Source: Octopus sinensis (lineage: Eukaryota). From it: a stretch of 64,000 nt of DNA. The notes beneath the pieces were generated by a model. The model saw only the letters and a list, made by a program, of their open reading frames with translations, had not been told where the DNA came from and did no database searches. The position numbers and the translations under genes are program-made. Where the stretch lies: assembly GCF_006345805.1 (NCBI RefSeq), contig NC_043026.1:2914001-2978000 (forward strand). The letters are read 5' to 3'. Below, one piece after another: positions 26,490 through 64,000 of the stretch (position 1 is the first letter of the stretch; each line of letters begins with the position of its first letter).

Positions 26490-26585
<96 letters not shown>

Positions 26586-33480: not shown

Positions 33481-33546
<66 letters not shown>

Positions 33547-35966: not shown

Positions 35967-36382
35967 GGAGTGGCTGTGTGGTAAGTAGCTTGCTTACCAA
36001 CCTCATGGTTCTGGGTTCAGTCCCACTGCGTGGCACCTTGGGCAAGTGTCTTCTACTATAGCCTCGAGCTGACCAAAGCCTTGTGAGTGGATTTGGTAGA
36101 CGGAAACTGAAAGAAGCCCGTCGTATATATGTATATATCGTTATGTTTGTATGTGTGTGTGCGTGTATGTTTGTGTGTCTGTGTTTGTCCCCCTAGCATT
36201 GCTTGACAACCGATGCTGGTGTGTTTACGTCCCCGTCACTTAGCGGTTCGGCAAAAAAGACCGATAGAATAAGTACTGGGCTTACAAAGAATAAGTCCCG
36301 GGGTCGAGTTGCTCGACTAAAGGCGGTGCTCCAGCATGGCCGCAGTCATCTGACTGAAACAAGTAAAAGAGTAAGAGAGTAA
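35967..36382 (+). mobile_element. Full-length tRNA-derived SINE (family copies at about 18240-18570 +, 27560-27965 -, 32688-33035 -, 33329-33775 +, 34240-34655 -, 35240-35657 -, 42119-42478 +, 44168-44520 -)
   Basis: A box tggctgtgtgg, B box ggttcagtccc, internal TA/TG microsatellite, tail aagtaaaagagtaagagagt. Confidence 0.88.
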
Positions 36383-36683
36383 GGGAGAGTCATAAGTCGG
36401 AGGCCTTCATTAGAGTCCTCCCAGATCAGAGATGACCAACTGACTAAAGAACAACAACAACAACAATAATTATGACAACAGCTGAACAGTTGAAAGAGTT
36501 TTTATTATTCATATTGAACTTTGTTTTTATTTTCATTTTAATAACAGACAACAGCCAACAACAACAACAAGAATAAGAAAAAACGATTTTTTTTCTTTTT
36601 ATTTATATTAAAACTGAAATGAATAAAAAAATTTTTTTTTATAGGAAACAAAAAATATTGCCCTTTAATCTTTTGCTATTTTT

Positions 36684-36724
<41 letters not shown>

Positions 36725-39700: not shown

Positions 39701-40056
39701 TCCTAGAGACTCGATGCCGGAATAAAAGACAGGATTAAACAATAACAACAACAACAACAAAATTTTAATTTAACATTAACAGATCTGGAGTATTTTGGTC
39801 TTTTTCCCCCACAACTTGCCATGTCATTTGAAGGGAACTTCTAAGTGGTGGCTTGACTTGCTACAATTGGCAGTGAAATCGCATCATCATGTCTCAAAAA
39901 AAAAATGGAGGGACGCCTTGAATAATGTAGTCTTGGCTACACAAAATGGCAAGGTGGTCATGGTAGGAATGTCTTTGATGGAATGTCTCATTCAGCAAGG
40001 CTAACTTTGGGTCAGGCAACCACCACCATAACAACAACAACAACAACAACAGCAAC

Positions 40057-40099
<43 letters not shown>

Positions 40100-40422
40100 G
40101 TTTAGTGCCCACTTTTCCAGGCTTGCATGGATTGGACAGAGTCTGAGGCAGATTTTCTATAACCAGCTGCCCTTCCAAGCAAGGTAGCATTTTCCTATGG
40201 TCAGCCATGTTCTCACAGAATACTGGAAATGAATGACACTGCTTGTACGACAGTGACACTCGTTTACGAGTCTCATGCAATATCAAGACAAAGAGACAGA
40301 AACGCATGCACACAGATACACACAGAGTCACACAGAGTCACACACTCATGTTCATACACACACTCACACTTTCACACGCACACATGCACACTTACACTCA
40401 TATACATACATACTCACACACA

Positions 40423-40469
<47 letters not shown>

Positions 40470-40835
40470 GCACACACATATTTATAAACTACAGGAGACT
40501 TTCAGTTTCTGTCTACCAAATCCACTAACAAATTATGGTCATCTTGGGGCTATAGAAAACTGAAAACCCTAAAATACTCCACAAATCCATCACCACCACC
40601 ATCACCACTACTCTTTCCTTAACCCTTTAGCATTCAGGTAACTCTGTCGAATGTATTTATATTACTTTAAATGAATCATGCAATTGCTTGAAGCTTCAAG
40701 ATTTTGATGATGTGATTGCTTACTTTTAGAATGACATGGTAGGATAAGTGTGAGAGATCAGATCTGGACACTTTGAACGTAAGTGCTAAAAGGTATAAAA
40801 AGTATAAAGTATAAACAACAGAACTCTTGTATACA

Positions 40836-40954
40836 TCACTCATCATCAATTCTTCTTCTCTTAATATATGGATGTAGTGCAGGTATTTTCTGTCGCTTTG
40901 AAAGCCCAATGCGTAAAATCTTTCTAATATTCATTGTTGGAGAATCAACAATTG
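40836..40954 (-). CDS. Terminal coding exon encoding a RAD51-interacting motif (RAD51AP1/RAD51AP2 type)
   Basis: Acceptor tttgtttcttgtcttcggcag, phase 1. (A)IVDSPTMNIRKILRIGLSKRQKIPALHPYIKRRRIDDE-TGA resembles the recalled RAD51AP1 LRLGLSRLARVKPLHP and RAD51AP2 IRIGLSRKARIKQLHPY. Confidence 0.82.
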
Positions 40955-41159
40955 CTGCCGAAGACAAGAAACAAATTTTATGGTTATTCATCGTCATTTA
41001 ATGCCCATTGTCCGTGCTAGCATGGGTTGGACGGTTTGACTAGACCTGGCAAACTGGGGAGCTGCACCAGACTCCAGTCTGATCTGGTTTCTATGGTTGG
41101 ATGAGGCCCTTCCTAATGCCAACCACTTTACAGGGTGTGCTGGGTTCTGTATGTAGTGC

Positions 41160-41758
41160 CACAAAGGCACTTTTACATGGCACCAAAACGGCTGTTTTCA
41201 CATGGTATAACAGGGGCACTTTTATGTGACACCACACAGACACTTTTTCATGACACTCTTTCATGACACTTTTATGTGACACTGTACAGGTACTTTTACA
41301 TGGCACCACATGGCTGCTTTCACATGGTATAACAGGGGCACTTTTATGTGACACCACATTGACACTTTTCATGGCACCACACGGCTGCTTTCACATGGTA
41401 TAACAGGGGCACTTTTATGTGACACCACATAGACACTTTTTCATGGCACTTTTATGTGACACTGTACATGTACTTTTACATGTCACCACATGGCTGCTTT
41501 CACATGGTATAACAGGGGCACTTTTATGTGACACCACATTGACACTTTTCATGGCATCACATGGCTGCTTTCACATGGTATAACAGGGGCACTTTTATGT
41601 GACACCACATTGACACTTTTCATGGCACCACATGGCTGCTTTCACATGGTATAACAGGGGCACTTTTATGTGACACCACATTGACACTTTTTCATGACAC
41701 TTTTTCATGGCACTTTTATGTGACACTGTATAGGTACTTTTACATGTCACCACACAGG
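41160..41758. repeat. Minisatellite of ~68-110 bp units attached to an RTE 3' end
   Basis: Repeated ggctgctttcacatggtataacaggggcacttttatgtgacaccaca. Confidence 0.85.
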
Positions 41759-42038
41759 CATTAAACTTGAACATTTTCAGGACTTGTCATAAACCTCAAC
41801 ATGGAGGATTTCTTAATACTTACATCTCTCTGTCGTTATAAGCACTTTATGTTTTATTCCTGGGTGTTTACAGGGTACCCAACTCTATTTGAACTACAAA
41901 CCTTTATTTCTCTGCTTATTTTTGTCTGTTTTTTTTTTTTACATCTGCACTATATTTGATTACTGTGTCAATGTGGTCACTCATCCTGCCAGAAATAGCT
42001 ACTGAATTTCCTTCAAATTACACCTTAGTGTCTTTGCT

Positions 42039-42120
<82 letters not shown>

Positions 42121-42785
42121 AGTGGCTGTGTGGTAAGTAGCTTGCTAACCAACCACATGGTTCTGGGTTCAGTCCCACTGCGTGGCACCTTGGTCAAGTG
42201 TCTCTACTATAGCCTCGGGCTGACCAAAGCCTTGTGAGTGGATTTGGTAGATGGAAACTGAAAGAAGCCCGTCGTATATATGTATATATATACATGCGTG
42301 TGTGTGCTTGTGTGTCTGTATTTGTCCCCCTAGCATTGCTTGACAACCGATGCTGGTGTGTTTATGACCCCGTTACTTAGCGGTTCGGCAAAAGAGACCG
42401 ATAGAATAAGTCCTGGGGTCGATTTGCTTGATTAAAGGCGGTGCTCCAATGACTAAAACAAGTAAAAGAGTAAAGAGTATATATATACAAACACAAACAC
42501 ATACATATATATAGAAACATGCATACACTCACATGCATACACACACATGTACTCACACACACATATATACATACATACATACATAAATTAGAAAAAAGTA
42601 ATATATATGTGTATGTATATATATATATATATATGTTAGAAGAAATAAGGAACTCAGAAATCTGGATGGTTTTATACACCACTAATCTATGATTTATGAA
42701 AACATGCGACATTAATAAAAATCTGTAAATATAAAACCATCCAGATTTCTTCTAATATATAATACCTGTACACCACCTCCAAACC

Positions 42786-42831
<46 letters not shown>

Positions 42832-44828
42832 GTGAAGGAAGAAATGGAGCTGAACGAAGATTTAACAAAATTCCTTTTTATTTCTTCCTTCACTAAATAT
42901 ATAAAACTTCAAATTTCCGCACTATGGCACGGTTTTTATGCCCCATGGTCGTAAGCACAACCGTGATTTTTCTGTTGTGATTTTTGCTACCCAGGTATCG
43001 GTTATCATTTGAATAATCCGTAACAAGATAATTCATTTATCCATTTCAATATATATATATATGTATATATACAAATTGAGATAGGGGTTGTAAATGCAAA
43101 CCTCCATGGAATAACATATATCCAATATACTGCTAGTGAAGTACCCAACAAAGTTAATACATAAATGTTAATAATTGCGATGCAATCAATTCATTTACTG
43201 CATTATATGGGCAAAGGTAAAATGATTTACCACAAATTACTAATACAAGATAAGAAAATGGAGAAATACATCTAAATCAAATATCAATTACCAGATAATA
43301 CTCAATCACATACTTTATTAAACCACCACATAAGAGACTGTAGGGTTAAATATAAAAAGCAGAACAAATCAGTGTACATAAAGGAATGTACATAAAAAAG
43401 TGTACATAAAAGAGTAATGTTGTATAATAATTAGAATATATATAAAAAAGAGAATATAAATGTAAGTAAATATAAATATATAATTTATACTTATATTTAT
43501 ATTCTTTTTTATATATATTCTACTTATTATACAACATTACTCTTTTATGTACACTTTTTTATGTAAATTCCTTTATGTACACTGATTTGTTCTGCTTTTT
43601 ATATTACATACATACATACATTCATACATACATACATACATACATACATACATTTATACATACATACATGTACACCTGACAGTAAATCAAAATTCCAAGA
43701 TTAAGACAAAAAATGATTTTATATGAGACTTCACTAATAAATAGACAAATGTGGAAAACAAAAAAGCAGTGATTTTATCTGACAGGATTCAAAATTATTA
43801 AACATTCATAATTGGAAGGAATAAATAAAAGTTGATTATTAAGTATTTATGGAATTTTGATTTACTGTCCAGTGACTTCCGGCCAACCCTGTGTGTGTGT
43901 GTGTGTGTGCTATCATACTCTATGTCTCTCTCTCTCTCTATACATGTATGTGTTTGTGTGTGTAAACCAACAAAGAAGAATTCAATTTTGTTGCGACATC
44001 AGAGGCCAAATCTCCATTTTGTGTTGGGCATTATCATCATTATCATCATTATCATCATTATCATCATTATCATCATTATCATCATTATCATTATTATCAT
44101 CATTATCATCATTATCATCATTATCATCATTATCATCATTATCATTATTATCATCATTATCATCATTATGGAGCACTGCCTTTAGTTGAGCAAATCGACC
44201 CCGGGACTTATTCTTTGTAAACCCAGTACTTATTCTATCGGTCTCTTTTGCCGAACCACTAAGTGACGGGGACGTAAACACAGCAGCATCGGTTGTCAAG
44301 CAATGCTAGGGGGACAAACACAAACACACATACATACATACATATATATATATGCATATATATGACAGGCTTCTTTCAGTTTCCGTCTACCAAATCCACT
44401 CACAAGGCATTGGTCGGCCCGGGGCTATAGCAGAAGACACTTGCCCAAGATGCCACGCAGTAGGACTGAACCCGGAACCATGTGGTTGGTTAGCAAGCTA
44501 CTTACCACACAGCCACTCCTGCGCCTATACACAGTATCAGAATGGACTTGAACTCACTGCCTTTATATTTAAACTTAAGTGTACCAGTTAAGTATGCACA
44601 GTTATAATATCTACATCCACCCTATATTCTGATTTCATCATTTTGTTCTAGAATCCATGCGTCTCACTCTTGGGTCTTTATATAGTACCAGACTGAAGTT
44701 CAAACTTTCTTTTAAAACATAGATTATTGTACATTTTACACTTTGACTGGCCAAATACCTGATTGTAATTGTTATCAAATGTTTTTTCTCACCTGTCTGT
44801 TAGGTGGTACAAGAACTTTCACACCACA

Positions 44829-45875
44829 GGATTTGGCAGTCACCATTCCCAAGAAGACAAAAAGTCATGATATTCAAAGCGATGGCTGAAAGTGTACTAT
44901 TTTAGGGATCTGAAACTCGGACCCTGGCAAAAAAGTTGCAGGAACTACAAGATGGATGCTACTCTGACATGCACTGAAATATTGAGTGGCAACAGAGGGT
45001 GACCAATAAAGACCTCTACAGGGACTCAGACAGGATCTTCTGCATACAAAATTCAATCATAAGGCCTGAGGCTATAGCAGAAAACACTTGACCAAGGTGC
45101 CATGCAGTGGGATTGAACCTGAAACCATGTGGTTGAGCAAGCTTCTTACCACACAGCCATACCTGCACCTTGTTTATAAATATGTATGTATATAAATACA
45201 TACATGATAGGCTTCTTTCAATTTCTGCATACCAAATTCAAAACAAGGCTTTGGTCAAGCTGCCATGCAGTGGGACTGAACCCCAAACCATGTGATTGGG
45301 AAGCAAGCTTCTTACCACACATCCATGCTGATTCCTATCTCTTAATAGGTACAGGGTACCAGACACAAATTGAACTAGGGATCTTTATTTCTAAAATGCT
45401 AGTCTACCTCTTAGATTGAGTTTCTTTCATCTGCACAGGCATTCTTGCAAGAGTCTCTGCCTTCCATTGCTGACTTGAACTTGGAAACCGATGAGCCAGT
45501 GTCGCCCCTTGGTCTGTTAACATATGTTGTGGCCAGTCAGTCTCTGCTTCTTTGGTCATGTGTTGGTAACCAGAGTAACACATCCCTGATGCATTCGCTT
45601 CTGGCCTGGTAGCAGTGCCCAGCAAAACACAGTCTTCCAGCTCTGACCACCTTTGCTATCAGGGGAAAGTCTCCTATAGAGGTCTTTACTGGTCACCCTC
45701 TGTTGCCACTCAATATTTTCGTACACGTCAGAGTTAGTGGGTGTAGCATCTGTCTAGAAGTTCCTGCAACATTTTTGTTAGGGTCCAACTTTCAGATCCC
45801 TAAAATAGCACACTTTCAGTTGTTGCTTTGAGGAAGATGACTTTTTGTCTTCTTGGGAGCAATAACTGCCAGATC
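44829..45875. mobile_element. Two inverted decayed copies of an RTE-like LINE segment (44829-45025 +, 45440-45875 -)
   Basis: tattttagggatctgaaa...gagtggcaacagagggtgacca and its reverse complement; the - copy translates YGDFPLIAKVVRAGRLCFAGHCYQA. Confidence 0.75.
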
Positions 45876-46322
45876 CTGTCTCTCAGTTTAGGGTCTTTCT
45901 TGTCATGAGTTCTCTCCCTGATAATGATAACCCTGCAGCAAGGTATTCTTATTCACTGGGCTACTGACAAGGTAATGACAATGCCAAGTCCCTAAACCCC
46001 TTGGCTGTCATTGGGGTGAGAAAGCCTGGCAGAGCCCATCCCTCTCCCCGGGCTAAACTCATATCTACAGTTGCGTGGCCTGGAGCAATGTGAAATGAAG
46101 TGTTTTGCTCAAGAGCACAATGGCTCACCCAGTCCAGGGATGGAAACCACAATCTTACGGTCGTGAATCCAACACCCTAACCACTAAGCCACTGAAGGAC
46201 ATTCTTATCTTCTTAACAATTCATCTCAAGGCTAAATCTAAATAAATGATGAGAAGGCCACAGCCAAGGCGAGCCTGATGAGGAGGTCAAACAACAATGG
46301 TAATCATACTGCTTTAGTTTAC

Positions 46323-46412
46323 CTGTTTCTGCTGAATTCGTCCTCACAGTCACAGAACAATCTTCTAAAGGTTTCTTCCATCTAAAGTTCCCTTTGTAGT
46401 TGAAATGCCTCT
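46323..46412 (-). CDS. 90-nt internal exon of the RAD51AP2-like gene
   Basis: Strong acceptor ttatttttactatcttcttactttttag and donor CAG|GTAAAC. Phase 1-1, open frame (K)RHFNYKGNFRWKKPLEDCSVTVRTNSAET. Confidence 0.65.
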
Positions 46413-46524
46413 CTAAAAAGTAAGAAGATAGTAAAAATAAGAAGGGGAAGGGTAAAATTTCAAATTTTAGCACAAGGCCTGCAATTTCGAGGAACACACA
46501 CACACAGAGATTCACTCACACCTA

Positions 46525-47418
46525 TACAAGTTCTGAACAATAAGTATCCAGACCGTTGCCATAGAAATTAATGCTACCTGGTACAGATTGACCTTGACCT
46601 CTGCTGTGCATGTGAACTAAGTTTTAAGGTTCTAGCTCACTTCTACCGTTTACAGCAGTGCTTGGAAGGAAGGTGTGTAGTGTGTGATCATTGCATTGAC
46701 CATGACAGAGAAAGTTGTCATGGTGATACCTGCTCAGAGGCCTTACACAAAGTTGCAGAAAGTGTATGGAGAGGAGTGTATGAAGGAAACACAGGTCTAC
46801 AAGTGGTTGAAACATTTCCAAGATGGCTGAAAAAATGTCCTTATTGACGAGCATTCTGGGAGACCCGCAACCAGTCGAACAGAGAAAAACATGACAGTGT
46901 ATGCAGCTGAGGAGGGAAGCCATCGAATCACCATCCAGAGTTATCAGAGGATGTGCGGATTAGTTCTGGTTCAGTTCAGTCCTTTATCACTGAAGATTTG
47001 GGTATGAGGTGCATGTCTACTAAAGTTCTGCCAAAACTGCTTTCAATTGACAAAAAAAAAAAAAACCACACAGGTTTCAGTTGCAGATCTTCTTCATTGT
47101 GTCGGAAACAATAAGACCTTTTTGAAAACTTTGTGCATGCCCCTGAGCAGGGATCGCTAAGCTTTTGGCAAAATTTGATGCAGATTCTCTGCCCAACTTT
47201 CTCTGTTGTGGTCGTTGCAACAATCACACGCTACACACCGTCCTTCCAAGCACTGCTATAAACAGCGGAAGTGAGCTAGAACGTTAAAACTTAGTGTGCA
47301 AGCACAGCAGAGTTCAAGGTCAATATGTACCAAGTGGCTTTAGCTTCGTGTGCTTCTGTGTGCTTTAGCTTCGTTACTATGACAACATGTTCGAATACTT
47401 ATTGATCAGACCAATGTA
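46525..47418. mobile_element. Mariner-derived fold-back element made of two inverted 5' ends
   Basis: TA-flanked TIRs tctga(a/t)caataagtat. N-terminal HTH remnants: KLQKVYGEECM...VYKWLKHFQDG...DEHSGRP (+) and QRICIKFCQKL (-). Confidence 0.8.
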
Positions 47419-47606
47419 TAAGGAGAGAAAAGAACATGGGCTTGAACTTGGTATTCCCTTAAAGGAACAGACACAGGAGTGGCTGGTAGGTAAGGTCTTG
47501 GCCGTGTGGTAAGGGCTTTGCTTCCCAACCACATAATTCCAGTTTCAAATCAGAGCTGAATGGATTTGGTAGACGGAAACTTAAAGAAGCCTGTCATGTG
47601 TGTGTG

Positions 47607-47648
<42 letters not shown>

Positions 47649-47689
47649 CAATTATATATATACATATATATATACATATATACATATAT

Positions 47690-47720
<31 letters not shown>

Positions 47721-47769
47721 TCTATATATATATATATATATATACATATATATACATATATATATATAC

Positions 47770-47836
<67 letters not shown>

Positions 47837-47837
47837 C

Positions 47838-47933
<96 letters not shown>

Positions 47934-48504
47934 TTTTATTTATTTTATTTTTATTTATCTAGTTTCAGCTCACAAGCTGTGGCCATGCTGGGGCACCGCC
48001 ATTTGGTGTTGCTACATGATTTTACTTCACGAATGCTTTTTAGCAATTGCCATTTGGTGCATGAGAGAGTTCGATGCAGCTGCCCTCATCTGCACCTCCT
48101 GCCGTGAAGTTGGTTCATCTGGGATATATATATATATAATAAAATATTAGGGAATAAATCCAAACTTACAGGGAAAAATCAGATTTAGGATTAAATCCAA
48201 TTTTATAGTAAAATATTATATTATATTAAATTAGAGATAAAAACATTATTAGGCAAATCAAACAATGAAAAACTTAAGCCAATACATAAAATTAATTAAT
48301 TTATATTATTTTAAATATATATCAAAAGTATTAAAATAAAAGATAATGATATATATTTAAAATAATATAAATTAATTAATTTTATGTATTGGCTTAAGTT
48401 TTTCATTGTTTGATTTACCTAATAGTGGATTTATCTCTAATTTAATATAATATATATATATATATATTATATATATATATATATAAATGTATATATATAT
48501 ATAC

Positions 48505-48539
<35 letters not shown>

Positions 48540-48547
<8 letters not shown>

Positions 48548-49617
48548 TGTGTGTGTGTGTGTGTTTTTGTGGTTGTCCTCCCAGCCTTATTACTTGACAA
48601 CCAGTTTGGTTGGTTTACATACTCGTAACTCAATGGTTCGACAAAAAATTTTTTTTAAAAAACTAACAGAATGAGTACCAGGCTTAGAAAAAGTAAGCCG
48701 TGCGGTCGATTTGTTGGACTCGAACCCATCAAGACAGTGGCCAGCATGACCCGCAGTCTAAAGACCGAAACAAGTAAGATATGTACAAGGGAGGTAACAA
48801 CATAAGCCCAATAATAATAATGTCGAGTATGACTTGGTTATTGAAGGGTCGCCTCCCTTGTTAGCTTCAGTAAAATATTTTATGTAAATATGTATATTTT
48901 TTTGTTTTACTCGTTTAATTAGCGATAGGAGGATAACACCGCCTCTTTTTTTTACTAATTAAAAATTTTTTTTGAGTCTGAGGGAGTGGCGAAAAGAATG
49001 GTGGCACAAAACGATTTCCACTAAAGTCAGCCAAGGGTAAAATAGTATTTGTTAAACCAGGTAAGGAATTTGAAAAACTCAGAAACCACAAAGTACCGAG
49101 TTTAATATGTGGCGCCACGTATTGAGTCCACCTTCCGGGACTGGTGGTTTCTCATCAGTTCTGAAAGATAAAGTTGACTTTAGCGAGATTTGAACTCAGT
49201 GCACAGAGATCCAGGCGATTTGTCCTAATGACTCCGCTAATTCGTTAGTTGCTTAGCAACAGAATTAATTTAAGATTGTTGATAAAAACGAAACAGTTTT
49301 CACGTGAAAAGTCGTCATAGCTATTAAAACACACACACACACACACACGCGCGTGCACATACATACACATACACAAACACACATACATACATACATACAT
49401 ACACATACATGCATGCATACATGCATGAATACATACATACATACATACAATACATACATACATATACATACATACATACACACACACATACACACACATA
49501 CATACATACAACATACATACATACATACATACATACACACAACATACATACATACATTACATACATACATACATACACATACATACATACAACATACATA
49601 CACAACACATACATACA

Positions 49618-49651
<34 letters not shown>

Positions 49652-49969
49652 CATACATACATACATATATACATACATACATACATACTACATACATACA
49701 TACATACACACACATACATACACATACATACATATAGACATACATACATACATACATACATACATACATACAACATACATACACAACACATACATACATA
49801 CATACATACATACATACATACATACATACATCCATACATACATACATACACACACATACACACACATACAACATACATACATACATGCATACATACACAC
49901 ACCACACACATACATACATACATAATACATACATACATACATACATACATAATACATACATACATACCT

Positions 49970-50000
<31 letters not shown>

Positions 50001-50371
50001 TACATACACCACATACATACATACATACATACATACATACATACATTCATACATACACACATACATACATACATACATACATGCATACATACATACAACA
50101 TACATACACACACACACATACATACATAATACATACATACATACATACATACATACATACGCGAAAGAGTACAGCAGGATTCGCCACCACCCCCTGCTGA
50201 AGCCACGTGGAACTTTAGATTTTTTGCTCTATAAACACTTGCCTGGTCTGGGAATCGATACCGCGATCCTACGACTGCGAGTCCGCTGCCCTAACCACTG
50301 CACCATTGCACCTCCCCCACACACACGCACTGACAGGGAAGTTAACCGCCCCATGACCGTCTTTGGAAAAT

Positions 50372-50441
<70 letters not shown>

Positions 50442-51507
50442 TGTGTGTGTGTGTGTGTTTTTGTGGTTGTCCTCCCAGCCTTATTACTTGACAACCAGTT
50501 TGGTTGGTTTACATACTCGTAACTCAATGGTTCGACAAAAAATTTTTTTTAAAAAACTAACAGAATGAGTACCAGGCTTAGAAAAAGTAAGCCTTGCGGT
50601 CGATTTGTTGGACTCGAACCATCAAGACAGTGGCCAGCATGACCCGCAGTCTAAAGACCGAAACAAGTAAGATATGTACAAGGGAGGTAACAACATAAGC
50701 CCAATAATAATAATGTCGAGTATGACTGGTTATTGAAGGGTTGCCTCCCTTGTTAGCTTCAGTAAAATATTTTATGTAAATATGTATATTTTTTTGTTTT
50801 ACTCGTTTAATTAGCGATAGGAGGATAACACCGCCTCTTTTTTTACTAATTAAAATTTTTTTTGAGTCTGAGAGAGTGGCGAAAAGAATGGTGGCACAAA
50901 ACGATTTCCACTAAAGTCAGCCAAGAGTAAAATAGTATTTGTTAAACCAGGTAAGGAATTTGAAAAACTCAGAAACCACAAAGTACCGAGTTTAATATGT
51001 GGCCCCACGTATTGAGTCCACCTTCCGGGACTGGTGGTTTCTCATCTGTTCTGAAAGATAAAGTTGACTTTAGCGAGATTTGAACTCAGTGCACAGAGAT
51101 CCAGGCGATTTGTCCTAATGACTCCGCTAATTCGTTAGTTGCTTAGCAACAGAATTAATTTAAGATTGTTGATAAAAACGAAACAGTTTTCACGTGGAAA
51201 AGTCGTCATAACTATTAAAACACACACACACACACACGCGCGTGCACATACATACACATACACAAACACACATACATACATACATACATACACACATACA
51301 TGCATGCATACATGCATGAATACATACATACATATACATACATACATACATATACATACATACATACACACACACATACATACACACTACATACATACAT
51401 ACATACATACATACATACATACATACACACACACATACATACACACATACATACATACATACATACATATATACAAACATACATACATACACACACACAT
51501 ACATACA

Positions 51508-51541
<34 letters not shown>

Positions 51542-51857
51542 CATACATACATACATATATACATACATACATACCTACCTACATACATACATACATACAC
51601 ACATACATACACACATACATACATATAGACATACATACATACATACATACATACATACATACATACATACATACACACACACATACATACATACATACAT
51701 ACATACATACACCACACATACATACATACATACATACATACACACACATACACACACATACATACATACATACATACATGCATACATACACACACACACA
51801 TACATACATACATACATACATACATACATACATACACACATACATACATACATACAT

Positions 51858-51888
<31 letters not shown>

Positions 51889-52260
51889 TACATACACACA
51901 TACATACATACATACATACATACATACATACATTCATACATACACACATACATACATACATACATACATGCATGCATGCATACATACATACATACACACA
52001 CACGCACACATACATACATACATACATACATACATACATACATACATACGCGAAAGAGTACAGCAGGATTCGCCACCACCCCCTGCTGAAGCCACGTGGA
52101 ACTTTAGATTTTTTGCTCTATAAACACTTGCCTGGTCTGGGAATCGATACCGCGATCCTACAACTGCGAGTCCGCTGCCCTAACCACTGCACCATTGCAC
52201 CTCCCCCACACACACGCACTGACAGGGAAGTTAACCGCCCCATGACCGTCTTTGGAAAAT

Positions 52261-52310
<50 letters not shown>
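48540..52310. repeat. Direct tandem duplication of a ~1.9-kb unit (SINE, unique sequence, (CATA)n, SINE head, (TA)n)
   Basis: 48541-50430 and 50433-52310 are near-identical outside the microsatellites. Confidence 0.92.
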
Positions 52311-52324
<14 letters not shown>

Positions 52325-52885
52325 AAAAAAGGAGATGTGGAACACGAGTTGTGATATATAAAAAAAGGAAATGAAGAAAATGCTGACAAAATAATTTAAG
52401 TAAGGGAGAGTGTATTTAATTAGGTGAAAGTTCTTTTTTTAAACAAAAAAAGAGAAAAATTGGGTTAGAATACAATGTACATTTTTACCGGTTGCGCATT
52501 TGTTATGCTTATCAAAAGATATTTTGAGTGAGATAGAGTTCCTTTCTGATTGATTTTTTTCTCTTATCTGACTTATCTTATCAAAAGTCAGATAAGAGAA
52601 AAAAATCAATCAGAAAGGAACTCTATCTCACTCAAAATATCTTTTGATAAGCATAACAAATGCGCAACCGGTAAAAATGTACATTGTATTCTAACCCAAT
52701 TTTTCTCTTTTTTTTGTTTAAAGAAAAGAACTTTCACCTAATTAAATACACTCTCCCTTACTTAAATTATTTTGTCAGCATTTTCTTCATTTCCTTTTTA
52801 TATATATATATATATATGTACATTCCAAAGACGGTCATGGGGCGGATAGCTTCCCTGTCAGTGCGTGTGTGTGGGGAGGTGCAAT
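52193..52885. repeat. Large interrupted palindrome
   Basis: Inner arms about 52355-52573 and 52585-52805; outer arms about 52193-52258 and 52823-52885. Confidence 0.9.
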
Positions 52886-53794
52886 ATACATATACATACT
52901 AGCTAACGTACCCGGGAATTCTCGGGAAAGCAGGGCTTATCTCTTAGTTCCGTTCTCATAACTGTTTCGCTAATCCAATAACAACAATACAAAGTATGTA
53001 GCCCTTAAAATGGCTTTTGTGCATTTACAGAGAATACCGAACTGTCTTACACAGGACCTTGCTTTTAGGAATTCCTAATAAGTTATGAATATGCAAATTG
53101 TGAAGTCAGTTATATAATAACATGAAATTAGTTACCTTATAATAAGAATTATAACATGAAATTAGTTACCTTATAGTAAGAATTCAAGTATTGTTGACCC
53201 AGAAAGGGCTATATACAAGAAAGGACTTTAACTTAGGGGGAAATACCAATAAGGTATGTATACTAAAATCTTGAGGCATGTTATGTAATAACAGGCTAAT
53301 CAGATATGAGATAATAACAATTCATAGTAAATAACTCTGAAAAGAGCTTTTGTGCATTCGCAGATAATATTACCCTCAGCAGCGCTAGTGTTGGTATATT
53401 CGTGAATAAGTCACTAACTGAAATGAGTGGATCTATTGTTAAGAAAACTACTATTTACTTGTTTAAGGGTTGTACTGGAGAAATTGTGAAAATAACTCTC
53501 ACATTTCAAATACTAAGAAATAAAGTATACACAATTTGATTTATATCAAATGATTTCGGAAAAATGAATGGGTTATTTCCCTTGGCTGTTAAAATGAAAT
53601 ACATTAGATATATATAAGGATACCTTCCAGGGGCCTTAGCAACGATTTATTTTCAACAATCTGAGTATGCCATGAGGTTTCCAGGCATGAGTTCTATTCA
53701 CGTGTCAAGTTTCATCAAAATTTCCCACATATGTAGTGTGTGTGTGTGGGGGGGTGTATAAAAGTTAGCTAGGCATCTAGCTAGCTAGGCATCT

Positions 53795-53891
53795 AGCTAG
53801 CTAGACAGACAGACAGACAGACAGATAGACTGACTGACAGACAGAAAGACAGACAGACTGACTGACAGACAGACAGACAGACAGACAGACT

Positions 53892-53926
<35 letters not shown>

Positions 53927-53946
53927 TGACTGACAGACAGACAGAC

Positions 53947-53980
<34 letters not shown>

Positions 53981-54041
53981 TAGATATATAGATAGATAGA
54001 TAGATAGATAGATCGATAGATAGATAGATAGATAGATAGAT

Positions 54042-54095
<54 letters not shown>

Positions 54096-54103
54096 AAGAT
54101 AGA
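53795..54103. repeat. (GACA)n-(GATA)n microsatellite
   Basis: Direct inspection. Confidence 0.92.
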
Positions 54104-54129
54104 TCTCGATTATACCTGAAGCATCCGGC

Positions 54130-54560
54130 AATCCACTGCAACACCTGTAACCAGGTCCAGCATGTCACCAATGCCAAGGGTGCCGCTGATGAAGGCGGAT
54201 GACCGAGTGCTTGGTTCTGATGATCGCAATACATGATCCACCCTAAACAATATCACCTGAAGGCCATTTGTGAATTCCGTTTTCGAGACGAGCTCAAGGC
54301 CACTCTCTTCCGTTGCTCCATTAGTCCAAATACCTGGGAGACACTCGCCAAGTGACCGCCAAAACAGCGGCATGACATCGTGAAGGGAACGGACAAGATG
54401 GAATATAACAGACGAGAGGAAGAAATAGGATGTCGAAGGCGCAAAGAGCGATTCGCACTTCCTCTCCCAACCAACCCTCCCCTGCAATATATGCCGCCCC
54501 CCGGCTCTTCTATACAACACTTGGCCTTAACAGCCTCCTCAGGCACCGGCACTCTTCGCA
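54130..54560 (+). mobile_element. Decayed RTE/BovB-like LINE 3' coding end
   Basis: FRDELKATLFRCSISPNTWETLA...RRRKER...CNIC...GLNSLLRH resembles the RTE C-terminus with its C2H2-like finger. Confidence 0.6.
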
Positions 54561-55263
54561 CCCTTCAGGATGAAGAGGTTTAATCACTCGCTACAGATTA
54601 GTTACTCGGACACGAGTTAATACTCCCGTCGTCGCTGCTATAAGCGTCATCGTTGACCACACACACACACACACACACACACACGAATTTCTCTTCTAAA
54701 ATCAATGAAGAAGAAACTATTTACAGACGTGGCTGTGTGGTTAGAAGTTTGCTTTTCAATCTTGTGGTCATTGGGTTCAGTGCTACTGCGCAGCGCCTTC
54801 GGCGAGTGTGTTCTAGTATAGCTCAGGGCCGACTGAAGCTTTGTGAGAAGATGTGCTAAGCGGAAACTGAAAGAAGCCCGTCGTCTGTCGGGCAGTGTTG
54901 GCGAAGAAAAGATAAAATTGGACGTTAATTATGACTATAGGGACGAGTATGTGACAGAAAAAGAAACATTGTCTAGCGTATGTGCAGCATCTGTTGTAGG
55001 ATACAAAGCTTTTAAAAATGAGTTCCAGATATAATGGATCGCAGGGAAACGTGGAGGGATTCAAATGCGCTTGACATGACAAGAACAACAACAACAATAT
55101 TTTGCTTTTCAAATTTTGGTGTCAGGCCAGCATTAGAGGAGAGGGGAGTAAATCGATTATATCGACTCCAGTGCTCAAATGGTACTTACATTATCGACCC
55201 CGAAAGGGTGAAAGGCGGAATTTGAACTCAGAACGTAAAGACAGCCAAAATAATAATACTTAC

Positions 55264-58200
55264 TTGGTGGGAGATCAGAATAGAAAGATTCTTGCTGATC
55301 GATTGAGAGGATGATCGGGAAGGAGGCTGTCTTGTCATTGGCCGCAGGTACACGCTGATCATCGGAGCAATTGGGATTTTCAATCCGGAATAGCGGTGTA
55401 TTCGCGTGATTCCTATTTAAGTCTGAGATTCCGTAACTTGCATTTGTCGACTTTCCACTTGAATCTTGAGCGAGGTTCTTTACATTCGTCCGATTTCCAT
55501 CCGCATCCATGGTTTTGCAATTTCTATTCGTTCTGTTCGATATCTCTCCTATTAAGCCACCGTCGTTAGCATCGTCGAGAACAGAGAGAGTATTACTGCG
55601 GCAACTACGAACGTCATTCGAACTCTTTTTCACAGCATCATTACTGCTCTGTGAGCAATTTATGGCATCACTGCATCCAGGTGGATTAGCCACGGGCTGG
55701 CAAACAGGACTTATTGTAGGTAAAGAGCTGTTTCTGCTCTTGTCGGATTTCACATACTCTCCTTCCTTTTGACCTCCTCGGGCCTCCTTGTTTGCCTGGG
55801 TTTTAGGAGAAAATCGATCATCTCTGGCCACATCTTCCTCAATGAGGTTATAATCTGAGACAACATCAGTGCAGCCATGAGAGTTGTGAATCAGTGAATT
55901 GCTTGTGTAAGGAAAGTCTGTCCTCTTGCTTGTTGCAGCATTGCACAGAAATGGGACCTTCGTGGGATTATGCTTAGGTTGCGCTTCACCTAAATAATTG
56001 TTGCTGTTGTCGATTTTCTTAGATATTTCTTGATCCTTATCTTCATATTCCGAATTTCCGTAATTTCTATTCGTTAAATTTCCATTTACGTCTGAGTTTC
56101 CGTAATTTGGGTTAGTTCCGTTTGAGAACTTTCTTGGTGAATTATCTTCCGCATTGTTAAGAAAAGGGATAGCCCTGCCAGAATTTCGACTGACATTCGA
56201 ACGTCCAACGACGATATCACTGCTGCTGTTGTTGCTTAAGCTAGCCTCCTGTGACTTATGTACTGTGGTATGCGAATCCAGAGTTGAATTATCAACGGGC
56301 TGACATCTTAACTCTAGTTTTGCTAAAGAACTGTTGCTATTGAACGTTTTCACGTATTCTACTTCCACTTCCTTTTCCCTTTCATCTTCATCGCCAGGCA
56401 TGGTTTTCAGATAAAATCGATCATCTCTAGTTGCATTTTTAATGACGAGGCCAGTATCTGAGACAACGTCTCTGCAACCGTTGAAGCTATTCACCTTTGA
56501 GCTGTTTACCTCAGACAAGTTTGCTTTCGCGTTTCCTGTAATATTGCATGGAAATGGAACCTCTCTTGGATGGCGCTCCGGTTCCGTTTCAACTAAATCA
56601 TTGTTGCTTTTGTGGATTTTCATTGACATTTCTTCTCCTTCCTTATCTCCGTTTTCTAATTTTCCGTGATATAAATTCACTCTATCCCCGCTTATATCTG
56701 AGTAAACGTAATTCGAATTTCTAGAATGTTCCCTTACGTCTGCGTTTCCCGGTTGATCTCCACTTACGTGCATATTTTCACAATATTCACTCGTTCTTTT
56801 TCCATTTACATTCCAGTTTCCACAACTGGCGTCCACCCGATTTTCTTCTGCCTCTAATTTCCCGCAGATGGAATTCGTCCGCTTCCCAATGTCGTTTGAC
56901 TTACCGCAATTGGATGTAATTCGATTTACATCCAAGTTTCCGTTAGTTGCATTCATCCTGTTTGAGCTTTGATTTGTTTCGTCATCTTGTGCCCTGATGA
57001 GAGCAGGGACATTATTGCAAAAAGAGTAAACGTTATTTGAACCCCCTTCGACACGGTCATTACTGATCTGATTTAAGACATTCGTCTGCAAGCTGCTTAT
57101 GGCATCACTGCAAATAAGTGGAATACCAACTGGTTGACATAGGGAACCAAGATTTGCTAAAGAGCTGCGGCAGTTATCAGTTTCCGTATGTCCTCCTTCT
57201 TTTCGGCTTATTCGGGCTTCCTTGTCTTCCTGGGTTTGGGGATAAAATCGATCATTGGTGACGTCACTATTGGTGTCACCATTAAATCTATCCATCTGTG
57301 AATTGCTTCTGTAAGAGATGTTGGCTCTGTCGCTGGCTGCATTATTTCCGTAATGACCTTCAATGGTGTGACGGTCTGTTTCTATTTCACCGTTGCCTTT
57401 GAGGATTTTCCTTACTAGTTTCCCTTCTCCTTCCTTATCTCCTTTTTCTGGGGTTTTGTCGTCTGCTTTTGTCTGACTCCCGTTCGCTTCTGATTTTTTG
57501 CATTTTGAATTTACCGAGTTTCCATCATTTGTGTTATTCCAATTTCCACATACGTCTGCGTTCGTCGGGTTTCGACAAACGCCTGAATCTCCATATTTTG
57601 AGTTTATCCTCGATGAACAATGCCCTGATTCGTTCTCCTTTTCTTCTACATTGCCGACTGCATGGACATTATTGCAGAAATTAAGGACATCATTCGCAAA
57701 CGTTTGGACAAAACCGTTTCTGCCACAGTTCATGATATTCGTCTGTAAGCCGTGTATGCTAACATCTCTGTCTCTGGATAGACTTACAACGGACTGACAC
57801 TTCCACTCTGCTTTTCTTCTCTTATTGTTTTTCTCGTGCTCTTCGACCTTCTGTCTTCTTTGCTTCTCCTCGTCGTTTCTGACAACATTTTTATTGGTGC
57901 AACTACAGCCATTAACAATCTTTGTCTGTGAACTGCTTGTGTGAGAAAAGTTTGCATTCCCGTTGCATTCATTGCACATTAACGAAACTTCAACCAGATG
58001 ACGCTTCCGTTCTGTTTCAACTAAATTTTTCGTACTTTTGTGAATTTTATTAGATTTTTCTTTTTCCTCATCGTTGCCGTCTTCCGTGATGCTGAGCTTT
58101 TCCTTCGTTAGTTTTCCACTTAATTCTGAGATTCTATAACTTGTGTTCATCTGATTTGTAGTTACGTTTAACTCATTGAAATTTGCGTCGACCAGTTTGC

Positions 58201-61200
58201 CACTTTCTTTCGATTTCCCACAATTTTCTTCTGTTGTTGGAATTTTAGTGATGTCTGACTTTCCACAGTTTTTGTTTGTCAAATTTCCATTTACACCTGA
58301 TGTTCCGTAATTAGCATTCATTCGATTTCCACATACATTTGGGTTGTTGGGATTTTCTTTCGTCGGATTTTGACTTGCGTGCGGATTTCCATAATCTGAG
58401 TTCGTACGCTTTAAGGATTGGACTTTTTCTTTGAACTCTTCTACATTTTTGAGGATAGGGACGTCATTGCAGAAATTGTGAACCTCACCTGAACACGCTT
58501 CGACAATATCATTTCTGTTCTGGTTAAGGATATTCGCCTGTGATCTACATGTGACACCTTTACACGAGTCTGCTGGTTCTAAACGTATGCTGCTGTTATC
58601 GACTTCCACACACTCCTCCCCTTCAGTTTTGCTTCTTCGATCCTCCTCGCCAGCCAGGATTGTAGGGTGAAATCGATCGTTTCTTGTCACATCTTCGTGG
58701 GTGGGACCATAATCTGAGACAGCGTTAGTGCCGTCGTTAAAGACGACCATCTGTGAACTGCTTGTGTGAGAAACGCTTGTTCTTTCAATGGTTGCATCAC
58801 TACACGTCAACAGAACGACATCACGATGACATTCCATTCCAACTAAACTTTTCTTTCTATCGTCGACTTCCAAAGATTCTTGTCCTTGTTGGTCGTCTTC
58901 TTCTTCTTCTTCTTCTTCTTCTTCTTCTTCTTCTTCTTCTTCTTCTTCTTCTTCTTCTTCTTCTTCTTTTCCTTCAGGTTTATTGTAGCTTGTTTTCATT
59001 CGAGTTCCGTTCAAGTTTGAGTCTCCGTTTTGTTGTTGGCCGCTTACATCCAAGTTTCCGTAATTGGTGATCGTTTGTTCTCCACTTACGTACAAATTTC
59101 CGTGATTGACTCTCATCGTTTGTTCTCCACTTACGTACAAATTTCCGTGATTGACTCTCATTGTTTGTTCTCCACTTACGTCAGAATTTCTGTTATTCAC
59201 GTTGGTGCTCATTAAGGATTCGGCTCTTTCATAATCCTCATCTGAATTGGTGAAGACAGCTCTATCATTGTAAAAACTGTTAGCGTTATTCGAGCATGTT
59301 TTACCAGCGTCACTTCTACTGTGTTCCAGGACATCTCTGCTTTTAAGTGAATCAACAACGGATTGACTAATAAACTGTGATTTTGCTAAATAGCAGTCAT
59401 TGCTTTCCACACTCCCTGCTTTCTTTTCATTCCTCCTCTTCTCATCTACTTGGATTTTAAGATAAAATTCATCATTTCTGAGTACATCTTTATTGGTGTG
59501 TTCATCGTCTAATTCAGCCTCACAACAACCCTTAAGATTATTCATCTTGGAACAGCTTCTGTGATAAACATTTTCTTTCTCGCTGGCTGCAGGATAGTAC
59601 AGAAATGGAACTTCAGTGGGTTGGCATCTAGGGTCCGTTTCAGCTAAACCACTCGTGCTGTTGTCGGGTTTCATAGATTCATCTTCTTCTTTTTCCCTCT
59701 CTTCCTCTGCCTTCTCCTTTTTGTGATTCGTGTTCGTCTGATTTCCGCAAACTTCTGAGTTCCTGCAATTTTCATTCAAACAATTATCACTTATATGCAA
59801 ATTTACATAATTCGAATTCATTAAGTTTCCACGAACATTCGTGTTTGTCCACTTTCCCTTTACGTCTGTCTTACTGCGATTGGCGTTCATTGGATCTTCA
59901 CTTTCATCTGAATTTCCCCTCCTGGAATTCGTCTGCATTCCATCAGGGTTACTGTAATCTTCGTCAGTTGCATTTCGTTTAACGCTTAAAGTCCTATAAT
60001 TTGTGTTCATGTTTGTAGAGTGGCTCGCTTCGTTATCCCCTTCTTCTGCATTGTCGTCAACAGGAACATTATTACGAACGTTTTTCGAACACACTTCAAC
60101 AATATCACTTCTGTTGTAGTTAAGGACATTTACCTGTGAATTATATATGACGGCATCTCTGTCATTAGGTGGAATAACAATGGGTTGACACCTCAACCCT
60201 AGTTTTGCTGAACAATTGTTATTGCTTTCCACGTACTTCTCTTTGTTTTCACTTTTTCGGTTTTCCTCGTCAACCTGGATTTGGGGATAAAATCGATCAG
60301 TTCTGATTACATCTTTATTGTTTTTACTATAGTCTGAGACGTCACTGCAGCCGTTGAAGATACTCGTCTGTGAACTACTTGTATAAGGAAGGCTTATCTT
60401 CTTGTTGGCTGCATCATCGCAATAAGATAGAACTTCAATGGGTTGGCATGTTGGTTCTGTTTCAGTTAAACTACTTTTACTTTTGTATGATACTTCTTGT
60501 TTGTTATCGCTTTTACCTGAGTTTCCGTAATTTGTGTTTGGCCGATTCTCACCTACATCTGAATTACTGTTACATGCGCCCATCAGATTTCGACTTACGT
60601 CCAAGTTTTTATAATCAGAGTTCATATTCTTTGAGGATTGACCTGTTATTTTAACCTCCTCTTCTTCATTGACGAGAACACACGCATTATTGCAGAAATT
60701 GCGAAAATCATTCGAGCACGTTTCGACAATATTTTTTTGGCTACGGTTTAGAGTATTCGTCTCTGAGCTACGTTTGATGGTATTTTCGCATTCGGGAAGA
60801 ATATTAATGGGCTGACAAATAGGTGTTGGTTTTGCTAAACAAATGTTATTGCTTTCTACTTGCTCTTCTATTGTTTCACTTATTTGGTTCTCCCCGACAT
60901 CCAGGATATTAGGATAAAATCGACCATTTCTTGCCTCACCTTTTTTCGTGGGGCTATAATCTGGCAAAAGGTCACTGCAGTCGTTAAATAAATCCATCTG
61001 TGAATTGCTTGCATGAAGGAAGTTTGCTGTTTCACTAGTAAGGCTATTGCAATAAGATGGCTCGCTGATGGGCTCATGCTTTGGTTCTGTTTCTGCTAAA
61101 ACATTGTTGCTTGTATGGGGTTTTGTAGATTCTCCTCCTCCCCCTCCTCTTCTTCCTTCTTCTTCTTCTTCTTCTTCTTCTTCTTCTTCTTCTTCAATTT

Positions 61201-64000
61201 GGTTTTCCTCTGTCTGAGTTTTAAAATGAAAGGTCTCGTTCTGCGAGGCTGAATTCATGCAATCAAAGTCATCGAAGATGTAGCTACTACTATTACTCTG
61301 GCTGTAGCTGTCCCCCTCCCTCTGTGAACCGTACATCTGACAATCGTCCCTTCCCACACTTACTACAGCCGCTGCAGTATAGTAAGACGGGACGATGGCA
61401 TCAGAATAATTCTTTTCTCCAACGGTCACAGCTAATAAATCATCGTCGCTGTTTCTGAAGTAGTTTCTCTTATCCAACTTCAGACTACAAACACCAGAAT
61501 GATTAACACTGTCTCTAGATTCTGCGTTGAGAGACAGAGTATCAACGAGGTCACACTTTTCTTCGGTTTCTTCTACATTATTACATTCATCAGCATCTTC
61601 ATTATTATTGTTGCTGTTGCTTTTAACCGATTCTTCTTCCTTTTCTTCGCTTCTGTCTTCTTTCTCGATTTCGCTTTTAGATTTATATCTATCTTTCGAG
61701 GGAATACTTTCATTATTCTTGCAGCCGAGGTTTGTACATCTTCCGTTTTCCATATCTTTATTATCCCATGTTTCATACAAGGGGTTGATAACTTTACATG
61801 CATCTCCCCATGTAAGCGTGTTATCGGTATATTGGTTATGACGAATAGTTTTATTTTTGATATCTTTACCATCCTGTGATCCATATAATGTAGTGGCATC
61901 ATTATATACATCATTATATACATCCTCTCTATGATACTTCTCATCGACATTTAGTAAGTTATTATCATTAATACATTTTTCACTTGCATCAGTTTCGTCA
62001 GTGTCTCGCTGAACAACCTTCACGATTCTGCCCTCGCTGTGAGGGGTTTTCTCTTCGGGGAGCTTCTTCATGCTACGATTGTCCCCTGTAATAACAGTAT
62101 TTCTTGTAACAGCAACAGGGTCCCAGTTGGGGATAGTTCGATAGTCCCTCGGGTTTGAGTTCAGGGAGGAGTTGTCGACTTGATTCGGAAATCTCTGCGT
62201 TTTTTCTGTAGTAGAAAATCTTGGCAGACTACATTGCGTTTCACTTTTGCCAGTCTTAACTGTGGACCGGTCAGTGTTTGTATTTATGATTGTATTTGTA
62301 TCTAGATCTGTGGTTGTGTGTGCATATGCTTTTGTGCATGCGGATGTAGATGTATCTTTGTTTGTGTTTGCTACGAGCTGAGGATTTTTTACTAATATAT
62401 TACCGATGTTTTCTGGTCTGCCTAAAGACTCTTCGGTTATTTTTTCTGAAGAGTCTGTTATTCCTGGATAGGTTGGTCGGTCATCCAAAATATTCAGGTT
62501 TTTAAATACTGGCTTGCTGTTTCCTTTCATGTCGTCTGTTGAACTGCAACCCGAGGCATTGTCCCAACGAACAATAGACTGAGGAAGCGAAGGCAGCGTA
62601 GCAACACAGTTAACGACACTGGCGCTCTGAGGAGGAGAGGTTCGAGGGCGAAATACAGATAAGTGGTTGAGACCCGGATGCTGTGAGGGTTTTACAATGT
62701 TGCACAATTGAGATTGGTGTTGTGTTTCTGGTGTAAAACTTCTGCATGTCTCATTACTAGTCCCGTGACTCAACACAAACGTCTCTTTGTAAGCTTCCAA
62801 TTTATTTACTACAATGAGGTCGTCGTGTTGGTGCTTGTGATCGCGTTCATTTTTCTGGTGGCCTTCATAAGAAACTTGCAGCACATTATCTGGAAGATCA
62901 GGGGTGGGAGTAGTGATATCGGTTTCACTTAAATGACACTTTCTCTGGAGCGTATCGACAGATGGTGAATATCTGTTGCTATAGTAATGGTGTGATTTGA
63001 GCGAACTGTCGTAAGTATTTTCATCATCACTACTCACAGTAATGCAAGATGAGTATGAATTTTGATAACCACACGCCTCGGCGTTACCTTCACTAAATGG
63101 CAGCTCACAAACTTCGTCCAAGTCGAGTTTAGAACCATCACAAGACTCGTGATCGAATCTGTTCTGGTTAGGTGTATTCTTCTTCGGTGAATCTTGCAAT
63201 TCCCTGTCTTTAGATCGATGAGTAACACTTGGCTGGTGTAGGAGCCTGTTACAATCTAAATCCTCGCAGGGTTTAACGTGACTTTGAAATATCTTAAACG
63301 GTGAGTTCAAAGTGGATGTAGGGGCATCGTCCCTATCATCCAAACTGCTTGTGACAAAACACGGAGCAAATTTTTGGAGCTGAGAATCTGGTGCCATTAT
63401 TTCGATTGAGTCCGGGCTTTTACCCTTGCACGTTTCAGAGTCATCCGATGAGTTCGGAATGTTAAAATCAACCCTGTTTGTCAGATTTGTAGAACCACAA
63501 GAAGAAAGGTCCCAAATATGTGGGATAGGTTCGTGAATAAAGTCAACGGCTGTCGGGGTATAATTAGGGTTCTGGCTTCTATTCTCCTCTTCTTCCTCCT
63601 CCCTATCAACAAGGTCCTCGTCACTATTCTGCCAAATGCTTTCTTGTGACTTGTAAAGACCCAAACAATCACGCAAGGCATTGTTGGTGTTAATTTTGTC
63701 ATCGATTTGACCCGATATCTGCCATTTGGCCCCGTCGGTCTGTGTCAGAAATTCCTTCGACATATACTGCTGGCTGCTGCAGTAAATTTCAGCGTCCCTC
63801 TGCGTTTCTGAGTATTTGCCTTTAGGAATAGTTTGCAGCATCCGACCGAGGTTGCTAGGATCCGCAAGTAAATCGTCATCGTTACCAAGTTCTGCAATCT
63901 CACCGTCGCTGTCGGCATCATTCACATTGTCCCAGTTGTCTTTTGTGTCTTGAAGACTTCTCTCAGTCGACGACGGCTTCATTATCTCAATTAGCAAATT
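55264..64000 (-). CDS. Giant coding exon (at least 8737 nt) of a RAD51AP2-like, repeat-rich, largely disordered protein; 5' end at or beyond the window edge
   Basis: Uninterrupted frame of more than 2900 codons, rich in N/S/E/D/K, with no TE domains. Canonical donor CCAA|GTAAGT at 55264/55263 (phase 1). The frame is still open at 64000; the first in-frame ATG is at 63982. Confidence 0.88.

Follow-up and report, generated by a model that had tools for sequence, protein, structure and literature searches.

A giant octopus gene with a RAD51-interaction-type C-terminal tail, probably a repeat-expanded orthologue of RAD51AP2

The minus strand of a 64,000-nucleotide (nt) stretch of Octopus sinensis DNA (the window) carries a gene of one giant and two small coding exons, the product of which ends in a motif of the type found in RAD51AP1 and RAD51AP2. 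That this is a real spliced gene is almost certain, and its exon layout and C-terminal tail suggest that it is probably a repeat-expanded orthologue of RAD51AP2, a human azoospermia gene that is needed for X-Y crossover in mice and has been described as vertebrate-specific. A preliminary description made from the window had proposed a cephalopod counterpart of RAD51AP2, either orthologous or convergent. Orthology is favoured here because a separate RAD51AP1 lies elsewhere in the genome and because AP2-type tails were found in scallop and Ciona; it falls short of proof, as the comparison included no vertebrate RAD51AP2 sequence.

Gene model and splice junctions

Exons at 64000-55264, 46412-46323 (90 nt) and 40954-40836 (119 nt) were joined to give 8946 nt in one open frame of 2981 codons with a single terminal stop, ending in the residues quoted in the preliminary description; the other two frames of the joined exons contain 143 and 313 stops. 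Neighbouring DNA beyond 64000 was also checked, and an in-frame TGA was found there at 64012-64010, three codons upstream of 64000. As the first ATG of the giant frame lies downstream of it, at 63982, the protein is 2975 amino acids (aa) long and the window holds essentially the whole gene. The giant first coding exon (55264..63982, 2906 codons plus 1 nt) is covered by long contigs of run X17 and ends at a GTAAGT donor (55258..55263); its frame stays open for a further 86 nt, to 55178. It is followed by exon 2 (46323..46412, phase 1-1), found in both RefSeq proteins described below, and by the terminal coding exon with the stop (40836..40954), the exon lengths being 2906, 30 and 39 residues. 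Both introns are phase 1 with canonical ends (GTAAGT/AG and GTAAAC/AG), and the phase-1 donor at 55263 and the compatible phases that had been proposed were thus confirmed.

The same two junctions, 55264>46412 and 46323>40954, are present in RefSeq models of two Octopus species, both of them gene predictions rather than reads. XP_036371267.1 (O. sinensis, 893 aa) corresponds to residues 2084-2975 at 99.8% identity, and XP_014790363.1 (O. bimaculoides, 1278 aa) to residues 1716-2975 at 82% identity; both are named putative uncharacterized protein. These models span 30-43% of the frame, the C-terminal third to 40% of the gene thus being already in RefSeq, unnamed. At the second junction, both RefSeq proteins have an extra Ala, which needs an acceptor 3 nt upstream (40955-40960), where both genomic copies of the gene read GG, not AG; the Ala may reflect an allele, a non-canonical site or annotation carry-over.

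None of the runs is on record as RNA or carries a tissue label, the data are contigs, and the patchy cover in runs X1-X3 says nothing about expression. The 640-nt contig 11 of run X17 aligns over 309 nt at 55572-55264, ending exactly at the donor, and its 331 further letters match nowhere on the stretch, whereas a genomic contig would enter the intron. We infer that these letters are exons 2-3, their length fitting 90 + 119 nt plus about 120 nt of 3' untranslated region. Another X17 contig aligns unbroken up to 64000 and past it, so that no splice is seen near the ATG.

Comparison of X17 with the window gave at least 39 coding sites that differ (14 synonymous, 25 non-synonymous and no stops among the sites listed). 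Identity between O. sinensis and O. bimaculoides is 936/1134 (82.5%) over the shared part of the giant exon, 50/56 at its end, 28/31 in exon 2 and 37/38 in exon 3, which is the most conserved part. Judged from these comparisons, the giant exon is protein-coding under weak constraint, and the tail is under strong constraint. The 2981-codon frame contains 11.5% Asn, 10.8% Ser and 16.7% Asp+Glu, and because of this composition the giant exon product is predicted to be disordered.

C-terminal tail

The motif R2951-IG-L2954-SKRQKIPA-L2963-H2964-P-Y2966-IK (40860..40913, minus strand) was identified by residue match to RAD51AP1 and RAD51AP2. R316, L319, L328 and H329 of RAD51AP1 are critical for RAD51 binding, as are L1134, L1143 and H1144 of RAD51AP2, in which a Tyr-Leu-Lys from Y1146 is AP2-specific (PMC1636435). 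All four critical residues are present in the octopus tail (R2951, L2954, L2963, H2964) at exact spacing, in agreement with the motif assignment of the preliminary description, and Y2966-I-K matches the position of the AP2-type Tyr-Leu-Lys. In RAD51AP1, LRLGLSR occupies a pocket at the interface between RAD51 protomers, and L-H lies in a groove (PMC12704761). A PDB search with the exon-3 peptide alone returned 0 matches; profiles including the octopus tail matched the RAD51AP1 chains 9qn8 and 9qnc. The ESM Atlas search with the octopus and scallop tails returned nothing usable. The sole [FWY]xWK pattern of the protein, F-R-W-K-K-P (46369..46386, minus strand), lies 35 aa upstream of the motif; a single FxWK is likewise found in the scallop protein described below, 40 residues upstream. 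The tail is considered very likely to bind RAD51.

Octopus RAD51AP1 and RAD51

A search of the genome with Pfam PF15696 (RAD51_interact) found a different exon on contig C7, at 40.8 bits, and not the window gene. The C7 exon belongs to an annotated 404-aa RAD51AP1 (XP_029639088.1), which has the RefSeq name, WxPP and a UIM-like stretch. The window gene is therefore a second motif carrier, as in vertebrates. The hallmarks of RAD51AP1 (WxPP about 25 aa before the motif, a UIM-like stretch and a basic protein of 300-430 aa) were not found in the window gene product, WxPP being absent by pattern check from the entire protein. Octopus RAD51, on C1, keeps the pocket residues E50, F92, I100 and D184, with R95 replaced by K (4/5 identical); position 50 is written as D50 in PMC12704761 and is E in the PDB sequence. 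This host RAD51 gene is split over at least 8 exons. A divergent RAD51 gene with very short introns, unlike the host gene, lies on a small contig (G000:C7512:67459-68480, L017) and is possibly from a co-assembled parasite. An intronless RAD51-paralogue frame of 359 codons was also seen (G000:C4:82961417-82962409, L018).

Exon plan and sequences next to the motif

The exons of human RAD51AP2 encode 1083, 27 and 49 aa (PMC1636435; PMC10226490). The octopus gene, at 2906, 30 and 39, has the same plan of one giant and two small exons with the motif wholly in the last, and the RAD51AP2-like layout that had been proposed is borne out. Mouse RAD51AP2 has SRPI just before the motif Arg (PMC8754306), and human RAD51AP2 has H-G-I-S-R-V-R-P, as read from the sense strand of a primer (PMC1636435). 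The Ciona tail, S-R-V-Q-P-L ... R-P-R-R, resembles these two stretches in matching order. The connection to the vertebrate protein made in this way is an indirect one. Just before the motif Arg, the octopus protein reads RKIL, scallop RKPR and Ciona NRPR, the basic residue being kept and the Pro lost in octopus.

Relatives in other animals

The profile search returned 23 proteins at E<=10 among 5173 candidates, of which 5 were the profile's own rows. Three long non-octopus proteins were among them, one from scallop (1218 aa, E 0.92) and two from Ciona (631 and 821 aa, E 6.4 and 7.0), and all three end in the motif. With PF15696 the tails scored 18.0 bits (scallop) and 28.6 bits (Ciona), the latter passing the curated cut-off of 25 bits. 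Two other matches (P0004, P0008) were dropped as repeat-driven and false. For comparison, 19 rows were used, with isoforms, near-duplicates, two fragments and the two false matches left out; the cluster members P0041 and P0043 stand for Ciona and Astyanax.

The scallop protein (XP_069126231.1) has 16/22 core residues in common with the octopus gene, the 12 AP1-type rows 5-11/22 and Ciona 9/22; the octopus RAD51AP1 tail has 11/22. All four long rows have P at -9 and a basic residue at -3, none of the 12 AP1-type rows does, and WxPP is found in 9/12 AP1-type rows and 0/4 long rows. Trees were computed on about 64 residues and also on the 22-column core. The split between long and AP1-type rows had support of 95/96 with 19 rows (bootstrap not settled) and 99/95 with the 15 animal rows. 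When the window gene was forced to group with octopod RAD51AP1, the topology was rejected by the approximately unbiased (AU) test (p-AU 0.028; the hypothesis was named after the first tree). The unnamed long Argopecten and Ciona proteins (P0035, P0039-P0041) are themselves candidate invertebrate RAD51AP2 orthologues.

The RAD51AP-type C-terminal motif also ends proteins of the yeast Hanseniaspora, of a fungal-type contig and of the choanoflagellate Choanoeca (L035, L036, P0006, P0023, P0036). The Hanseniaspora proteins could be Hed1 relatives.

Internal repeats

Between aa 945 and 2830 (55493..61150, minus strand) the protein is repetitive: eight degenerate copies of a unit with a ~190-aa core were found (24-40% pairwise identity), so that much of the extra length comes from internal duplication. 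In a leave-one-out test, in which each repeat was scored with a profile built from the other seven, the values were 97-179 bits, and the best of 200 shuffles reached 1.8-7.7. Five of the repeats were found in the O. bimaculoides protein, and a Pfam family was matched by none of the eight. A BRCA2-like protein, with eight repeats in a giant exon, was considered and rejected: there was no BRC or other convincing Pfam match, and neither Fx[TS]A[SG] nor [FW]xPP occurs anywhere in the octopus protein.

Evaluation of alternative explanations

Several results weigh against orthology with RAD51AP2. The scallop and Ciona matches are each non-significant alone at the E values given above, and support for the split falls to 87/85 in the core-only tree. 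In the tree the yeast rows group with the long rows, at a point where long branches meet, so that the long-type tail subtype may be ancestral rather than shared-derived; with the 78-aa tail, two yeast proteins scored 85 and 84 and scallop 81. Similarity upstream of the motif is weak, 135 of 2000 shuffles being as high for octopus and scallop and 54 of 2000 for octopus and Ciona, and a further comparison (19 of 2000) was also counted as weak. None of the octopus-type repeats was detected above 8 bits in scallop, Ciona, RAD51AP1 or Daphnia proteins. The preliminary description had pointed to the Pfam RAD51_interact model for the C-terminal end; a match was found at profile positions 22-39, but at 16.7 bits (E 0.0086) the octopus protein is below the 25-bit cut-off and is therefore not assigned to PF15696 by threshold, and the match is absent with full-length proteins. 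The Tyr after LH(P) is found in 0/12 AP1-type rows, yet it is lacking in scallop and Ciona, and LHPYL is present in a fungal-type metagenome contig, so this residue is not diagnostic of AP2. At -2 the octopus protein has I where RAD51AP2 has P. The protein searches returned no vertebrate RAD51AP2, and a GEN1-type chromodomain maps to C16, not to C30, the contig of the window gene. In human, GEN1 is a neighbour of RAD51AP2.

An independent mollusc or cephalopod gene is one alternative. A RAD51-binding last exon, derived from RAD51AP1 or from older stock, would have been gained behind an unrelated giant disordered exon, and the layout would be convergent. Consistent with this, no homology beyond octopus was seen outside the last ~40 aa (in a homologue search with the whole giant exon, 8000 candidates of 1598-5086 aa were scored and none reached E<=0.001, which is weak evidence), the repeats are octopus-only among the 7 proteins tested, and the motif is short and, being also present in yeasts and a choanoflagellate, able to recur. 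We nevertheless consider such an origin unlikely, since the tail is nearer to scallop than to octopus RAD51AP1, the AU test rejects the grouping with octopod RAD51AP1 under the proviso already given, and a small middle exon of near-equal length would need two origins. It is highly improbable that the giant exon is a separate, mostly unspliced or decaying gene and the motif exon vestigial. The frame does continue for 86 nt beyond the donor to a stop, pN/pS between X17 and the window is 0.48-0.64 among the sites listed, and a second genomic copy carries a frameshift in a Glu-codon repeat; against these stand the two junctions common to the models of two species, the X17 contig that departs at the donor, the frame-preserving indels of X17 (2/2 listed, of 3 and 12 nt) and the strong conservation of exon 3.

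It is decidedly doubtful, though compatible with RAD51AP2 orthology, that the tail acts in meiosis as a Hed1-like competitor, filling the RAD51 cleft, stabilising the filament, excluding RAD54 and favouring DMC1. Among the 19 rows, the end of the Hed1 peptide (PMC12452912) scores best on the two octopus rows (34; 6/11 identical), and the 4 long and both yeast rows score 23-34 and the 12 AP1-type rows 13-21; Hed1 binds the same RAD51 cleft as RAD51AP1 (PMC13748634), and the octopus protein lacks the WxPP site. The comparison was, however, post hoc and covered only the last 15 residues of a Rad51-binding region that spans 118-156. The printed Hed1 peptide stops before any LHP, the upstream helix that Hed1 uses has no evident counterpart in octopus, and loss of mouse RAD51AP2 destabilises recombination intermediates, which indicates promotion rather than inhibition (PMC8754306).

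Proposed function

For the gene as a RAD51AP2 orthologue, the following mechanism may be envisaged. The C-terminal tail, which is basic, is predicted to attach to RAD51 filaments; by analogy with the human RAD51AP1-RAD51 structure, RIGLS would enter the site-M pocket between protomers and L-H the site-C groove. The product of the giant exon is likely a disordered, fast-evolving arm, its length tripled by internal duplication, and this arm would most likely serve as a flexible scaffold that helps to stabilise recombination intermediates in meiocytes. Mouse RAD51AP2 keeps such intermediates stable (PMC8754306). From the mouse and human proteins, recruitment would be by RAD51 rather than DMC1 and expression restricted to the germline; that the octopus gene is meiosis-restricted is somewhat favoured by this analogy. 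The preliminary description had also allowed for a DMC1 partner. For RAD51AP2 of human and mouse, binding to RAD51 but not to DMC1 is reported (PMC1636435, PMC8754306), and RAD51AP1 uses its WxPP site for DMC1 (PMC12704761). Because AP2 does not bind DMC1 and the octopus protein lacks WxPP, DMC1 binding appears unlikely, and this part of the proposal is not supported in its original form.

Second genomic copy and other features of the window

Positions 30764..64000 are part of a segment of about 45 kb that is repeated inverted at G000:C30:2441173-2487628 (99.0-99.4% identical), placing a second copy of the gene about 480 kb away on C30; this is the copy with the frameshift in the Glu-codon repeat. 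It is a probable overlap of two haplotype contigs in the assembly. A true gene duplication was disfavoured: both copies begin at an assembly gap (100 N), substitutions between them amount to about 0.2%, and outside the overlap their flanks have only short repeats in common.

Intron 1 contains a near-perfect palindrome of about 450 bp (52354-52807; arms of 141 nt at 97% and 106 nt at 93%) and a tandem duplication of about 1.95 kb (48479-52328; 96%) with long (ACAT)n arrays. A minisatellite with periods of 24, 71 and 180 bp lies just upstream of the terminal exon (41217-41742). Broken frames resembling endonuclease and reverse-transcriptase pieces of a LINE were found at 6400-9400 (plus strand) and 23860-26775 (minus strand).

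Significance

If the octopus gene is a RAD51AP2 orthologue, the lineage likely predates vertebrates. Its presence in octopus, scallop and tunicate would move the origin of RAD51AP2 back to the bilaterian ancestor and would point to a general role in meiosis that predates the sex chromosomes of mammals. The surprise is lowered because molluscs already have an annotated RAD51AP1, a gene that in 2006 was likewise called vertebrate-specific. The case also illustrates how such genes get missed, with a tail under the Pfam cut-off, RefSeq models of 30-43% of the frame and uninformative names. In the literature search no report of an invertebrate RAD51AP2 was found, although orthology databases and the supplements of PMC8754306 and PMC12704761 may hold such assignments; nothing joined RAD51AP2 with octopus or dealt with the motif string or the five accessions, and the matches for RAD51AP2 with invertebrate concern mammalian germline by title. 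Because the tail is short and conserved, its binding, its RAD51-versus-DMC1 specificity and its competition with RAD54 are open to direct tests.

A more far-reaching and quite doubtful proposal is that RAD51AP2 is an old meiotic RAD51 regulator, separate from RAD51AP1 by the time of the bilaterian ancestor, of the same tail subtype as yeast Hed1, which would make its lineage the animal counterpart that Hed1 has so far lacked; the octopus member would be a giant form with eight copies of an undescribed ~190-aa repeat. As stated in PMC12452912 and PMC3401455, no Hed1 homologue is known in higher eukaryotes.

Comparison with known systems

With RAD51AP1 (human PDB 9qn8, 9qnc; PF15696) the octopus protein shares the site-M (RIGLS) and site-C (LH) residues; it differs in lacking the WxPP site-N and the UIM-like stretch, in having an acidic rather than basic body and in being seven times longer. 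Budding-yeast Hed1 (PMC12452912) likewise has [KR]-[VI]-G-L-S-K-[KR]-Q-x-[LI]-P near its C-terminus; unlike the octopus protein it is 162 aa long with an upstream helix, and the similarity was found in 15 residues only. The proteins of Argopecten irradians (XP_069126231.1) and Ciona intestinalis (LOC108950512) are, like that of octopus, long and acidic, with P at -9, a basic residue at -3 and no WxPP, and the Argopecten protein also shares RIGLSKRQKI and the upstream FxWK; at 630-1220 aa, they differ in lacking octopus-type repeats and the Tyr after LH. Compared with vertebrate RAD51AP2 (human 1159 aa, mouse 976 aa; PMC1636435, PMC8754306), the octopus protein is about 2.6 times longer, has eight internal repeats and has a last exon that starts 14 rather than 20 residues before the motif Arg. 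The two have in common R-x-x-L-x8-L-H-x-Y-[LI]-K, a basic residue three positions before the motif Arg and no other recognised domain.

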